Shown: positions 28,769 through 47,230, counted from the first letter of the stretch. The stretch: DNA of 64,000 nucleotides from Escherichia coli (GCF_048403405.1 NZ_CP183129.1), one strand, 5' to 3'. The notes: a model not told the origin generated them from the letters alone. Program-made: numbers and translations.

Positions 28769-28800
28769 AAGCCCTCGCGTTGAGGGCTTTATTGATTTTT
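28769..28800. terminator. terminator hairpin between convergent grxA and ybjM
   Basis: aagccctc-gcgtt-gagggctt followed by a T-rich tract. Confidence 0.6.
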
Positions 28801-29166
28801 TCTGTGCTGTGGTTTAAACAAACTACTGATAAATAAGAAACACAGTGCCCCCAGCGCACACCAGAACACCGCACTTAATAACCATGCCAGCTCTTGCCAG
28901 AATGAGCGCGTCGGTGAAAAAAACAGCCGCATAATAAGCATGGAACAGGGTGCCGCCAGCATTGCGCCAAACAGAGGTTTCAGGACTTCTCTACGCTGTG
29001 AAAAGAAGCTGGCAACTGCTCCAGGAAGAATGAAAAACAGCAAGCCGATTTCAGGATGCCCGGCAGCCCGAAAAGCGCCTTTCATGTGCGTCGCCAGAAA
29101 AAGGCACACCACAATGAAGAGGACAAAACAGCAGATTGCCCCCGCCCAACGTTGTTTATGTTTCAC
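28789..29166 (-). CDS. ybjM: inner membrane protein YbjM
   Basis: 125-aa translation MKHKQRWAGAICCFVLFIVVCLF... Confidence 0.9.
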   Translation of the reverse strand: MKHKQRWAGAICCFVLFIVVCLFLATHMKGAFRAAGHPEIGLLFFILPGAVASFFSQRREVLKPLFGAMLAAPCSMLIMRLFFSPTRSFWQELAWLLSAVFWCALGALCFLFISSLFKPQHRKNQ

Positions 29167-29435
29167 TCGTTCCTCCTGACACTGCGTCTATCGAACACAT
29201 TTTTCGCCAGTGTGGCGTTCAGTAAGATAAAGCCGCTTCGCATTCCATGCTAATATAGGCCAACGCAATTCATATAGCCGTTGATACCTAATGTGATTAC
29301 ACTAGTAAAATATATTGTTACTTTACTATCGTTTAGGTGCGCTGAATGAATCTGCGCCCTGAATTCTGGTAAAAAACATTATCGTAAATTACCATTTCTT
29401 TCAACAGCTTACTAGTAAACAAGAAGTTAGCCTCC

Positions 29436-31121
29436 GTGAATATAAACGTCGCCGAATTGTTAAATGGGAATTACATTCTGTTATTATTTGTGGTCCTCGC
29501 GCTTGGGCTATGTCTCGGGAAATTACGACTTGGTTCGATCCAACTGGGTAATTCCATTGGCGTTTTAGTCGTATCGCTGTTATTAGGCCAACAACATTTC
29601 AGCATTAACACCGACGCGCTTAATCTTGGCTTTATGCTGTTTATTTTCTGCGTCGGGGTCGAAGCCGGACCGAACTTTTTTTCCATTTTTTTTCGCGATG
29701 GGAAAAATTACCTAATGTTAGCACTGGTGATGGTTGGCAGTGCGCTGGCCATCGCCTTAGGGTTAGGTAAGCTGTTTGGCTGGGATATTGGCCTGACGGC
29801 CGGTATGTTAGCAGGCTCTATGACGTCAACACCGGTTCTGGTCGGTGCTGGCGATACACTGCGTCATTCCGGCATGGAAAGCAGGCAGCTCTCACTGGCA
29901 CTGGATAATCTGAGCCTCGGGTATGCCTTAACCTATTTAATCGGTCTGGTGAGTTTGATTGTTGGTGCGCGTTACTTGCCGAAATTGCAGCATCAGGACT
30001 TACAGACCAGCGCCCAGCAAATCGCCCGCGAACGTGGCCTGGACACAGATGCCAACCGTAAGGTTTATTTGCCGGTGATCCGCGCCTACCGCGTCGGCCC
30101 GGAGCTGGTAGCCTGGACCGACGGCAAAAATCTGCGTGAACTGGGTATTTATCGACAAACCGGCTGCTACATTGAACGTATTCGGCGTAACGGGATTCTG
30201 GCAAATCCAGACGGTGATGCCGTGCTACAAATGGGCGATGAAATAGCGTTGGTAGGCTACCCCGACGCCCACGCCCGACTCGATCCCAGTTTCCGTAATG
30301 GCAAAGAAGTTTTCGATCGTGACCTTCTCGACATGCGTATCGTCACTGAAGAAGTGGTCGTTAAAAACCATAACGCTGTTGGCAAACGCCTGGCACAACT
30401 GAAGTTGACCGATCACGGTTGCTTCCTTAACCGCGTCATACGTAGCCAGATTGAGATGCCGATTGATGACAACGTCGTGCTTAACAAAGGTGACGTTTTA
30501 CAAGTCAGCGGCGATGCCCGCCGCGTAAAAACCATCGCCGATCGCATCGGCTTTATCTCGATTCACAGCCAGGTCACTGACTTGCTGGCATTCTGCGCCT
30601 TCTTTGTTATTGGGCTGATGATCGGGATGATCACCTTCCAGTTCAGCACATTCAGTTTCGGCATGGGGAACGCTGCCGGGTTGTTATTCGCCGGAATTAT
30701 GCTGGGCTTTATGCGTGCTAACCACCCGACCTTCGGTTACATTCCGCAGGGTGCATTAAGCATGGTGAAGGAGTTCGGCTTGATGGTGTTTATGGCAGGC
30801 GTTGGTCTGAGCGCTGGTAGCGGTATTAATAACGGCCTGGGCGCGATTGGCGGTCAGATGTTGATTGCCGGATTGATTGTCAGTCTGGTGCCAGTGGTTA
30901 TCTGCTTCTTGTTCGGTGCTTATGTATTGCGAATGAACCGCGCACTGTTGTTCGGCGCAATGATGGGCGCACGCACCTGCGCGCCGGCAATGGAGATCAT
31001 CAGTGATACAGCTCGCAGTAACATCCCGGCGCTGGGCTATGCGGGCACCTACGCAATCGCCAACGTCCTGCTGACGCTGGCAGGGACAATCATCGTCATG
31101 GTATGGCCAGGATTAGGATAA
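29436..31121 (+). CDS. ybjL: putative transport protein YbjL (two transporter domains flanking TrkA-C-like domains)
   Basis: 561-aa translation [24 protein letters not shown]... Confidence 0.93.
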
Positions 31122-31197: not shown

Positions 31198-31276
31198 GCC
31201 ACTGCTTTTCTTTGATGTCCCCATTTTGTGGAGCCCATCAACCCCGCCATTTCGGTTCAAGGTTGGTGGGTTTTTT
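31198..31276 (+). ncRNA. rybB: RybB small RNA (sigma-E-dependent, Hfq-binding)
   Basis: 79-nt sequence gccactgcttttctttgatgtccccattttgtggagcccatcaaccccgccatttcggttcaaggttggtgggtttttt matches RybB as I recall it, with intrinsic terminator (ccaacc/ggttgg + U6); lies between ybjL and rcdA as in E. coli. Confidence 0.9.
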
Positions 31277-31295
31277 GTTATCTAAAATTTATCTA

Positions 31296-44881: not shown

Positions 44882-47230
44882 CTACTCTTTTACTAATTTT
44901 CCACTTTTATCCCAGGCGGAGAACGGCATGGGTTTCTGGTACAGATACCCCTGAGCCTGAACACATCCTAATTTGATTAATTCGCGCGCAACGTCTTCGC
45001 TCTCTACGCCTTCCGCAATCACCGGGATCCGGTTATAGCGTGCCAGATCGAAAATAATGCGCACAATTTTTCCCGCAGTACCGAAAATATCGCCGGTAAA
45101 TTGTGAGTCCACCTTTATGCTATCTGGATTAATTTCATAAAAACGTTTCAGGTTTGACAAACCGGTGCCAAAGTCATCAATCGATATCCGTACCCCTTGT
45201 TTACGCAGTTGTTCAATATTGAGATAAAAATGTTCATTAATTCGCTCGATCACGGTTTCAGTGATCTCAACACAGAGGCTGTTCGCCTTCAGGCCATTTT
45301 CTTTCATGATGGTGGTAAAACGCTCATGAAAGTGTGGTTCGTTTAACTGCCAGGGCGAAACATTAATATGCAGTAAGAAATCATCCTTCAGCGACGCACG
45401 CTGACTAAAATGTCTGAATTCACCCATTGCCGTTTTAATAATCTGATAACCCAGCTCATTGATAAACCCGATATCTTCAGCAATGGTAATGAACTTTAGC
45501 GGTGAAATGATCCCCCGCTCCGCAGACACCCAACGGCACAACGCCTCCGCGCCCAGAATGGCGCGGGTGTTAATATCAACGATCGGTTGATAGACGAGGA
45601 ATAGTTCGCCAATTTCCATTGCATGGCGAATATTACGCGCAATCCAGATATTCTCTTCTATTTCGTTGAGTTTCGCGTCATCACAGAAAATAAACTCGGA
45701 GAACATATGGTCACGGATACTGGAAATCGCCAGTTTCAGTTTTTCTGCGTAACTCCAGGCGTTTTCTCCCTGCAAAGGTTCACAAATGGCAGACTTATGG
45801 ATGCGCAGATTGCGGTAGCCAAAGCTGCTGTCAAAATCGTTTATCATCGCTATTTTACGGGTAAATGTCTGTACATTTTCCCGGCACAGAAGTAAATAGA
45901 GATCGGCATTGAATGTCACGATATCGCAGCATTGCGCATATTTCTCGGCAATTCGCTGACACAATTTCCTGACGATTTTATTGCGTTCATCAACACCAAA
46001 CACCGCTTCCACGGCTTCCAGACCACACAGTTTGATGATCCCCACAGCCAGATACTGATTATTGTTGGACTCAATAATCGCCATATTTTTAATAAAACCG
46101 CTTTCCTGATCGTAAGAGATCAGTGAGAGCAATTTATTTGACCGTTCAATTTCGGCATCTTTCATTTCCGCGATCGAATTTTTGATGCTGATAATCTCTT
46201 TCGCATCGCCTTCGCGAATTTTCAGAGCCTCGATCTGATCCGTTGAGTCGGGCAAAAACGCCAGCGTATTAACCAGCTCGGTCATTTCAGAAAATTGCCG
46301 ACGGAACACACGAGTGGTCATTAAATAAACCACCAGCAATACGATAATAATGAAAGCAAACGGCAGATAAAAAAGTTTATCTGATGCGTTCAATAAATTA
46401 CCGCCAGGATAATAAAAATAGATTTCGAATAATGCGTTGTTTGGCACCGCTGATGTTTTTTCGATATATTCAGTATCGACAGAATCAATAATATTATAAT
46501 TACCTTCGCTATTATAAATAATCAGTTTTTCACGCGCGAGTTGATTCTTGGCAATGATCTCATGGCCTTGTTTCAAAAATAGAACTTCATCATTAGCGCT
46601 GATTTGATCAAGATACTCGTTCAGATATCGCCAGTTTAAATCGACATGTATTTTATCCACCGCTAACAAATCGTGATCTTTGCCGTTGATGCGTAGCGTA
46701 AAAGAGATACATTTTTTACCCGGACGATCAAAGCAATTGTAGGCCGGATTCCAGCTGTTGTTAGAGTCATCTGAAGCCACCGACCATGGTCGTTTCGATG
46801 GATTAAAATCGGCAAAAATAACCCGCCCTGACTCGTCGACAAGCGGTCCATTTACTTCTTCCTGATGATAAACAACGATTTTATCATTCGCCCTCCGCGA
46901 AAAGAGATAATATTTATTATCATCAAGTACCAGTCCCACCGAGTCTAAAAATGGCATCATTTCCATTTTAAGGATCACAGCGCGTTGAATCTCCTCTGTA
47001 TTTTTTAATAAATACAGTGAGTCCTTTAATGTCAGGGCCGAACGTTCAATATCTTTAAAGAAATAGCCAACGTTTTTCTGAATAAGTTCAAAGCGGCTAT
47101 CGGCACGTTTTACCGCGCGTTCCGATACCAGTTGATAGTTAATGATGAAAAAAAGGCCAATAAATGACAGTGCTGCCAATAAAAATAAAATTATCAGCCT
47201 TATCTTTATCTTTTCGTATAAACTCAGCAT
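44882..47230 (-). CDS. pdeI: c-di-GMP phosphodiesterase PdeI (YliE)
   Basis: From ATG 47230 ([21 protein letters not shown]...), 782 aa, C-terminal EAL domain (EALCRW); track ORF extends 26 codons upstream. Confidence 0.9.

Follow-up and report, generated by a model that had tools for sequence, protein, structure and literature searches.

The GalR operators OE and OI lie about 113 bp apart, and the LacI operators O1 and O3 are separated by 92 bp. TrpR operators, which read ...GTACTAGTTAACTAGTAC..., contain ACTAGT and possess two CTAG cores spaced 8 bp apart within a palindrome of ~18 bp, with a flanking G at GNACT. Such operators belong to the small number of functional settings where Escherichia coli retains the rare CTAG tetranucleotide. 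The CpxR box is a GTAAA-N5-GTAAA tandem, the IHF core is WATCAAnnnnTTR, and the H-NS nucleation motif is tCGATAAATT. (ARN)3 runs are of the kind bound by the distal face of Hfq.

The divergent region between the E. coli genes ybjM and ybjL is already documented in part, by Reg-Seq and by RpoD SELEX. Work done by Shimada et al. 2014 (PMC3946193) placed an RpoD-holoenzyme SELEX peak in this spacer, predicted a promoter in each direction and flagged binding of H-NS. Using Reg-Seq, Ireland et al. 2020 (eLife; PMC7567609) described the ybjL promoter as (0 activators, 3 repressors), with no proteins identified. That study concerns the same DNA as the present analysis and is silent on a repeated word in the spacer, on conservation and on the opposing ybjM promoter. 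Loss of ybjL results in better tolerance of glutarate and adipate (bioRxiv 10.1101/634105).

The window analyzed here is a 64-kb stretch of an E. coli chromosome that carries, in order, rimK-nfsA-ybjC, grxA, ybjM, ybjL, rybB and rcdA. The genes closest to the spacer are as follows.

28789 to 29166, minus strand: ybjM, an inner-membrane protein of 125 amino acids.
29436 to 31121, plus strand: ybjL, an AAE-family transporter of 561 amino acids with a GTG start at 29436.
31201 to 31279: rybB, the RybB RNA, found as an Rfam covariance-model match.

The ybjM-ybjL spacer is 269 bp long (29167-29435) and has 0 mismatches in 269 positions to E. coli K-12 MG1655. Because the two are identical, published MG1655 coordinates transfer straight to the window, where position x of MG1655 becomes 29436 - (x - 889819). 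Only RybB passed the Rfam covariance-model search, which returned nothing in 29167-29435 at E <= 1. The literature also mentions an 'OxyR induction' of ybjM, for which read-through from grxA may be speculated.

The spacer contains a repeated word, ACTAGTAAA, and the original prediction was that its two copies may be a pair of sites bound by an unidentified regulator of the ybjL transporter. The word is present exactly twice in the window, both times on the plus strand and 110 bp apart.

29301 to 29309, plus strand: copy 1 of ACTAGTAAA, an exact match.
29411 to 29419, plus strand: copy 2 of ACTAGTAAA, an exact match, 25-17 nt upstream of the ybjL GTG.
29409 to 29418, either strand: TTACTAGTAA, a perfect 10-bp palindrome whose conserved form is TTACTnGTAA(AC).

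The 12-mers around the copies are acactagtaaaa at 29299-29310 and ttactagtaaac at 29409-29420. Both copies upstream of ybjL are therefore real, the one correction being that the first interval had been started at 29298, a base too early. The second interval, its perfect 10-bp palindrome and the distance of about 110 bp between two copies lying inside the spacer all proved exact on checking. Copy 2 is palindromic and copy 1 is not, and TTACTAGTAA has no further match in the window with 1 mismatch allowed. As argued below, the two ACTAGTAAA words probably (at roughly 60%) represent a coincidental identity, particular to the Escherichia lineage, between two different cis-elements, and not one operator used twice.

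A repeated 9-mer as such is routine in this window, which holds 87 exact 9-mer pairs at most 150 bp apart, compared to 56 +/- 10 in simulated windows (order-3 Markov model). ACTAGTAAA itself is rare because CTAG is strongly depleted. The window contains 8 CTAG and 2 ACTAGT, and both ACTAGT are copies 1 and 2. Dinucleotide shuffles gave an expectation of 0.18 copies of ACTAGTAAA per window, and two or more copies arose in 1 of 100 shuffles. With log10 p = -6.7 it ranks as the most improbable of the 87 repeated 9-mers, and since an equally improbable repeated 9-mer was found in 0 of 200 windows simulated under the order-3 Markov model, the repeat is beyond chance at the scale of the window. Its genome-wide significance, roughly estimated and not computed, is modest because the word was picked post hoc and there are ~70 such windows per genome. 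Moreover, even a repeated word whose statistical rarity stems from CTAG depletion may be shared by unrelated elements through coincidence. The 32-mers around copies 1 and 2 are present in 5415 and 5276 of 5426 complete E. coli genomes, respectively. This near-fixation adds little, because conservation of the entire spacer among E. coli genomes is at least 95%.

The conservation of the two copies beyond E. coli separates them. The ybjL loci were taken from 80 species representatives, nearly all labelled Enterobacteriaceae, and the spacer was aligned for 24 genera. Across these 24 genera the columns of copy 1 are A24 C24 T24 A24 G11 T6 A4 A6 A3, and those of copy 2 are A24 C23 T21 A10/G9/C5 G24 T24 A24 A24 A24. 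At copy 1, ACTA alone is conserved; GTAAA is specific to Escherichia and is replaced by GCGGC in most genera. At copy 2, the conserved form is TTACTnGTAAAC (AC-T-GTAAA), in which the A of CTAG is free. Even within or close to Escherichia, copy 2 lacks CTAG in E. albertii, E. whittamii, Escherichia sp. E1V33 and a divergent genome labelled E. coli; E. albertii reads CTCG and still has 8/9 identity to the word. The conserved letters common to both copies are ACT only, and the 9-mer shared by both positions is confined to Escherichia. Outside this genus copy 1 reads ACTAGCGGC or similar while its flanking block is invariant, so that the conserved determinant at copy 1 is GATTA(A/C)ACTA and not the shared word.

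Neither copy's conserved form matches the other copy. Because the conserved positions differ and the two forms are not interchangeable, a common recognition sequence is argued against, and the proposal that the copies are two sites for the same regulator is not supported, given the differing positions across the 24 genera. In the 64-kb window the exact repeat exceeds chance, and the conserved forms, searched as TTACTNGTAAA and GATTAMACTA, are not above chance frequency. The sole look-alike of the conserved forms, TTTACGGGTAAA at 45854, lies inside an 808-aa ORF.

Copy 1 lies at the probable start of ybjL transcription, among the following elements.

29295 to 29304, plus strand: the invariant block GATTA(A/C)ACTA, kept in 22-24 of 24 genera at each position except 29300 (A20/C3/G1).
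29298 to 29303, plus strand: TACACT, the proposed ybjL -10 (TAAACT in most genera), 7 nt upstream of 29310.
29275 to 29280, plus strand: TAGCCG, which takes the -35 position with a 17-bp spacer to TACACT.
29310 to 29317, plus strand: the ybjL transcription start site (TSS); 29310 corresponds to the Reg-Seq '0' (MG1655 889945), and the RACE start would be 29317 should the stated offset of 7 bp apply.
29281 to 29311, plus strand: an alternative predicted ybjL promoter, TTGATA-19-TAAAAT, with TTGATA at 29281-29286 and TAAAAT at 29306-29311 (Shimada et al. 2014, PMC3946193).

We infer the promoter assignments and the roles of the blocks from these sequences, from their pattern of conservation and from the Reg-Seq footprint. 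T1, A2 and T6 of TACACT are kept in 23-24 of 24 genera, and TAGYYS-17-TA(A/C)ACT is present in 70 of 84 loci. TAGCCG is a poor -35 (3/6), yet it is highly conserved and lies within CTAGCCG in other genera. TTGATA fits as the ybjL -35 only through a 19-bp spacer to TAAAAT. The latter hexamer overlaps the TAAA of copy 1, would go with a start at 29317, and is not conserved outside Escherichia in the alignment of 24 genera. Conservation thus favors TA(A/C)ACT as the putative ybjL -10 over the Escherichia-only TAAAAT. A simple consensus promoter scan found nothing in the spacer. The ybjL '0' of Reg-Seq is a TSS from RACE given with a 7-bp offset (Ireland et al. 2020, PMC7567609). With a start at 29310, TACACT occupies -12 to -7, and the Reg-Seq RNA polymerase index of 104 in a construct that spans -115 to +45 would correspond to about -11, in agreement with this hexamer. 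Copy 1, at -9 to -1 from 29310, then takes in the final 3 nt of the -10 hexamer and an A/T-rich discriminator, and it straddles the -10 and the discriminator whichever start, 29310 or 29317, holds. In most other genera, two direct repeats, cGATTnTnaCTAGCCG and cGATTAAACTAgCGG, lie 28 bp apart over the ybjL promoter; E. coli has degenerate versions of these at 29266-29280 and 29294-29308.

Reg-Seq mutagenized the ybjL promoter from -115 to +45, and copy 2, at about +101 to +109, lies outside this range. Three repressor-like sites were reported.

29223 to 29232, plus strand: repressor-like site -87 to -78, which coincides with the conserved block CAGATAAAG.
29290 to 29308, plus strand: repressor-like site -20 to -2, which covers copy 1 and the GATTA(A/C)ACTA block.
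29313 to 29323, plus strand: repressor-like site +3 to +13, a moderately conserved TTGTT stretch.

All three sites fall on blocks that show conservation, which is strongest at the first two. A footprint and a conserved block coincide at copy 1, whose left half is therefore functional and negatively controlled DNA. A negative regulator acting at copy 1 is therefore plausible, since the -20 to -2 site overlies it, and to this extent the reading of the word as a regulator site survives.

Copy 2 lies next to a promoter that faces the other way.

29376 to 29404, minus strand: a predicted leftward sigma-70 promoter to ybjM, with -35 TTGAAA at 29404-29399, a 17-bp spacer and -10 TAATGT at 29381-29376.
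29405 to 29435, either strand: the highly conserved block CAGCTTACTnGTAAACAAGAAGTTAGCCTCC, which contains copy 2.

The -35 of this promoter and T1, A2 and T6 of its -10 are invariant in 24 of 24 genera, with variation at positions 3 and 4 of the -10 (TAATGT, TACTGT, TAAGGT, TAGTGT, TAGGGT and TAAATT). The signature TTGAnn-17-TAnnnT recurs in 82 of 84 genomes, with constant spacing and always equally far from ybjL. Only Yersinia enterocolitica and an Erwinia depart from this; they are precisely the pair of genomes in which ybjM is missing, and in these grxA abuts ybjL. Both also lack TTACTnGTAAAC, yet their YbjL is ~88-91% identical and has the same GTGAAT start. Copy 2 thus tracks the presence of ybjM and not that of ybjL, as judged from n = 2 ybjM-less genomes in which the entire spacer is remodelled. 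Rahnella and Serratia keep ybjM, the promoter and GTAAACAAnAAGTTAnCC, which is lost in Yersinia and Erwinia; in Rahnella the left arm of the palindrome, TTAC, is lost (ttgttGGTAAAC). Shimada et al. 2014 (PMC3946193) predicted the ybjM promoter as TTGAAA-15-GATAAT with the same -35, and conservation favors a 17-bp spacer and TAATGT as the likely arrangement over the published 15-bp spacer and GATAAT.

The copy 2 block serves two neighbors by position. The nearly invariant stretch of ~60 nt in which copy 2 lies runs to the ybjL GTG across the 24 genera, and CAGCTTACTnGTAAACAAGAAGTTAGCCTCC is both the 5' UTR and translation-initiation region of ybjL and the -36 to -66 flank of the ybjM promoter. 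Copy 2 itself is at -42 to -50 of the predicted ybjM TSS. Because the leftward promoter is conserved and copy 2 is lost together with ybjM, copy 2 is read as part of the upstream flank of the ybjM promoter.

The predicted ybjM TSS is at about 29369, which places a proposed ybjM promoter inside the ybjL 5' UTR and gives ybjM a leader of about 200 nt. Kim et al. 2012 listed TSSs of just 2-3 reads, with ybjL starts at 29381 and 29262 and a lone ybjM start at 29239 (2 reads). None of these is at 29310 or about 29369, and the TSS data, which include the 7-bp ambiguity of the RACE/Reg-Seq site, are sparse and do not fully agree. A long 5' leader of ybjM that gives rise to short transcripts has been reported (Raghavan et al. 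2011), as has the binding of such transcripts to Hfq, by co-IP (Bilusic et al. 2014). Such a leader, with the complement of copy 1 inside, would result from a leftward start near 29369. If both predictions hold, the transcripts of ybjL and ybjM would share ~60 bp, running head to head, and this overlap spans a hairpin.

29322 to 29374, either strand: a stable hairpin of 53 nt that separates the two promoters; it falls within the 5' UTR of ybjL and, for the most part, within the leader predicted for ybjM.

The hairpin has a dG of -21.4 kcal/mol and z = -5.9 in E. coli, and z falls below -2 in just 8 of 24 genera. RNAalifold on the ybjM-leader strand found no conserved structure beyond one 4-bp hairpin, and single-sequence folds gave z = -1.9 and -1.6.

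Taken as two separate elements, the copies would work as follows. At copy 1, ACT would be the end of the ybjL -10 hexamer TA[A/C]ACT inside GATTA(A/C)ACTA. AGTAAA would be an A/T-rich discriminator found only in Escherichia, where it took the place of the GC-rich GCGGC of other genera and also gave rise to the alternative -10 TAAAAT. Transcription of ybjL would begin at 29310 or 29317, and RNA polymerase would compete at copy 1 with the repressor-like activity seen by Reg-Seq mutagenesis, which could be a dedicated transcription factor or H-NS. At copy 2, TTACTnGTAAAC together with AAGAAGTTAGCC would most likely be an upstream promoter element or regulator-contact element for ybjM, and the 3' end of the block may double as the ribosome-loading region of ybjL. 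Further factors almost certainly bind both blocks, because their conservation is tighter than bare promoter elements need.

The strongest form of the original idea is a paired operator, in which a regulator, perhaps acquired or retuned in Escherichia, binds ACT(A/C)GTAAA twice, loops the intervening 110 bp, and represses ybjL and perhaps ybjM. The exact repeat of so rare a word speaks for it, as do the Reg-Seq footprint over copy 1, to which no protein has been assigned, and the 8/9 identity in E. albertii. The spacing of about 10.5 helical turns (at 10.5 bp per turn) is compatible with looping and is weak evidence alone. The near-fixation of both copies in 5426 genomes might be added to these, but in a spacer this conserved it is uninformative. 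The ACTAGCGGC-like sequence at copy 1 outside Escherichia, the free A of CTAG at copy 2 and the palindrome found at one copy only all weigh against the arrangement, and the TrpR, RcdA, CpxR and TyrR motifs that were checked do not fit, leaving a paired operator improbable. Still less probable, and best regarded as conjecture, is a variant in which a conserved regulator reads GATTnnnACTAGC-type boxes, of which most genera have two over the ybjL promoter as direct repeats spaced by 28 bp, and in which a further contact of the ACTAGTAAA type arose close to the ybjM promoter in Escherichia, so that one protein bridges ~110 bp. Such a protein would co-repress ybjL, a dicarboxylate-related transporter, and the ybjM leader, whose transcripts would overlap head to head.

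Two other readings part the copies in different ways, and each is doubtful. One places the function of copy 2 in RNA, with UUACUnGUAAACAAGAAGUUAGCCUCC as a ribosome-standby site, an S1 or Hfq site, or an sRNA-pairing site for ybjL translation, and with copy 1 as unrelated promoter DNA. The near-invariance of the ~60 nt directly 5' of the GTG would suit this function, and AAC-AAG-AAG forms an (ARN)3 run in the ybjL 5' UTR. In addition, ybjL is without a good Shine-Dalgarno sequence, having CCUCC before its GTG, and the segment is weakly paired in the E. coli MFE fold. Against this, Yersinia and Erwinia keep YbjL and GTGAAT without TTACTnGTAAAC, so this part is not needed for ybjL translation; about AAGAAGT of the segment remains, in Erwinia only. 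The segment has no Rfam match, a partner sRNA was not found in the literature searched, and the left part of the block is explained by the -35/-10 signature on the opposite strand. The other reading, which seems similarly doubtful, invokes nucleoid proteins. H-NS on the A/T-rich GATTAAAC and GATAAAG would give the Reg-Seq signals, and an IHF-type bend would organize both promoters at the following element.

29400 to 29411: the IHF-like core TTCAAnnnnTTA, which overlaps the ybjM -35 and whose TTA begins copy 2.

The H-NS binding that Shimada et al. (PMC3946193) flagged in the spacer is consistent with this, and cGATTAAAc and GATAAAg resemble the H-NS nucleation motif. The invariant TTCAA, four free bases and invariant TTA mirror the IHF core, which E. 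coli matches at 8/9 (tTTCAAcagcTTA) and Serratia and Rahnella match perfectly (ATCAAgaatTTR), in a low-information motif that overlaps the -35. However, neither the H-NS nor the IHF motif carries much information, base-for-base conservation of 10 bp across 24 genera is unusual for an H-NS site, and TTCAA is equally explained as the opposite-strand -35 TTGAAA. The reading of the copies as two different cis-elements, each tied to its own promoter, is the favored one.

Several known regulators and features were compared to the spacer and set aside. For TrpR, each site offers only one CTAG, with TTA or ACA at its flank and TAAAATAT or TAAACAAG downstream, and the CTAG is not conserved. RcdA (YbjK), the adjacent TetR-type regulator, has the box TTGTnnACA, and the ybjL/ybjM spacer is absent from its SELEX target tables (PMC3535384). 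This box is in neither 9-mer, and the spacer was not selected by RcdA genomic SELEX. For CpxR, GTAAA or TTTAC is found at 29305, 29322 (opposite strand), 29368, 29384 and 29415, with none 10 bp apart and only 29415 conserved. The spacing is unsuitable for TyrR (TGTAAA-N6-TTTACA) and wrong for half-site likenesses to EvgA, PhoP and OmpR. A GntR/LacI-type ATGTTA-N4-TAACAT has 9/16 matches and a center that is not CG. The ATAG elements that recall OxyR are 19 bp apart, not 22. Among alternative sigma factors, the sigma-54 candidate TGGCA-N5-TGCCA is 2 bp short in spacing, and sigma-28 has no match in the spacer. A Salmonella sigma-E ChIP peak is annotated to the ybjM-ybjL spacer, but a convincing sigma-E motif was found on neither strand. 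An in-frame N-terminal extension of YbjL was rejected: the frame is open, but neither E. coli nor the 24-genus consensus has a start codon in it, and a stop lies at 29385 in E. coli. None of the small upstream ORFs in the ybjL 5' UTR is conserved.

The analysis provides a base-level conservation map of the ybjL control region and ties anonymous Reg-Seq footprints to conserved blocks. The bases worth mutating are GATTA(A/C)ACTA and TTACTnGTAAAC, and not the shared ACTAGTAAA.

Compared to known systems, the spacer shares with GalR and LacI looping the presence of two similar short sites ~110 bp apart, of which the first overlies the core promoter and the second lies downstream of it, and its 110-bp spacing is near a whole-plus-half number of helical turns. 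It differs from the GalR and LacI operators in that it lacks a shared conserved motif and a central CG, and in that only one of its sites is a palindrome. The divergent class described by RpoD SELEX (Shimada et al. 2014, PMC3946193) is likewise compact, with a sigma-70 promoter in each direction and overlapping transcripts. The ybjM-ybjL spacer is closest to an ordinary compact divergent sigma-70 promoter region with uncharacterized negative regulation.

The ybjL promoter in most genera carries two direct repeats, cGATTnTnaCTAGCCG and cGATTAAACTAgCGG, spaced 28 bp apart and accompanied by a conserved CAGATAAAG block. Both the repeats and the block fall on the repressor-like sites reported by Reg-Seq, and they could be boxes for some conserved regulator. 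These and the other elements of the ybjM-ybjL spacer are listed by window position.

Features of the spacer between ybjM and ybjL
29223-29232 and 29266-29308: the direct repeats and CAGATAAAG block, in the ybjL promoter region
29240-29250, - strand RNA: a small hairpin in the ybjM leader, GCAUGGAAUGC in E. coli and TGGCAnGGAnTGCCA in other genera
29322-29374: a 53-nt hairpin between the ybjL and ybjM promoters, with dG of -21.4 kcal/mol and z = -5.9 in E. coli
29376-29404, - strand: a conserved leftward promoter, TTGAAA-17-TAATGT, within the ybjL 5' UTR

Among the ybjL loci fetched from other genomes, the repeats are found approximately -160 and -134 from ybjL in L025, L026, L030, L045, L049, L053, L072, and others. 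The discriminator that lies 3' of the conserved ybjL -10 element (29304-29309) is the A/T-rich AGTAAA in Escherichia, whereas most other genera have a GC-rich sequence there, GCGGCC or one like it. This difference could shift the sensitivity of the ybjL promoter to stringent control by ppGpp/DksA.

Because the leftward promoter is located inside the ybjL 5' UTR, the ybjL and ybjM transcripts would overlap head to head by approximately 60 bp (29310-29369). Such an overlap, if true, would leave the two genes open to transcriptional interference or to antisense pairing with each other. The 53-nt hairpin is also very stable in E. albertii (z = -4.4), as it is in E. coli. In other genera the sequence of this region differs, and a significant fold is present in only 8 of the 24 aligned. 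GTAAA/TTTAC pentamers occur five times within 29305-29419, starting at 29305, 29322 (on the opposite strand), 29368, 29384, and 29415. The shorter GTAA/TTAC tetramers number approximately 10 in the 269 bp spacer. These words, several of which build part of the hairpin stems, are mostly limited to Escherichia or to Escherichia, Salmonella, and Citrobacter.

Yersinia enterocolitica (L083) and Erwinia (L086) are both without ybjM. In these genomes, grxA is directly upstream of ybjL in the identical orientation, and the entire spacer, including both conserved blocks, is replaced. A search of E. coli genomes also returned seven matches to the chromosomal spacer on plasmid-typed records.

Directly downstream of ybjL, E. 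coli C4 and Serratia sp. D1N4 each carry the end of a P2-like prophage, composed of an Ogr/Delta zinc-finger gene and a gpD late-control gene.

P2-like prophage ends next to ybjL
5658-7001 of L001, the E. coli C4 locus
3182-4089 of L085, the Serratia sp. D1N4 locus

These ends agree with the reported integration of NC-MV between ybjL and rcdA (PMC12803456). Their position points to an attachment site, located at rybB or close to it, whose conservation would extend across families.

In Salmonella 14028S, the published annotation places a sigma-E ChIP-seq peak (943664-943722) in the interval that separates the ybjL homologue from ybjM (PMC4577112). Both strands of the E. coli spacer and of the 24-genus consensus were checked for sigma-E -35/-10 elements, and no convincing match was found.

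The small hairpin is the sole conserved structure that RNAalifold identified in the ybjM leader, and it presents GGA in its loop. The ybjM Shine-Dalgarno sequence is CAGGAGG. By sequence, the GGA-loop hairpin and this Shine-Dalgarno look like a putative CsrA-type site pair.
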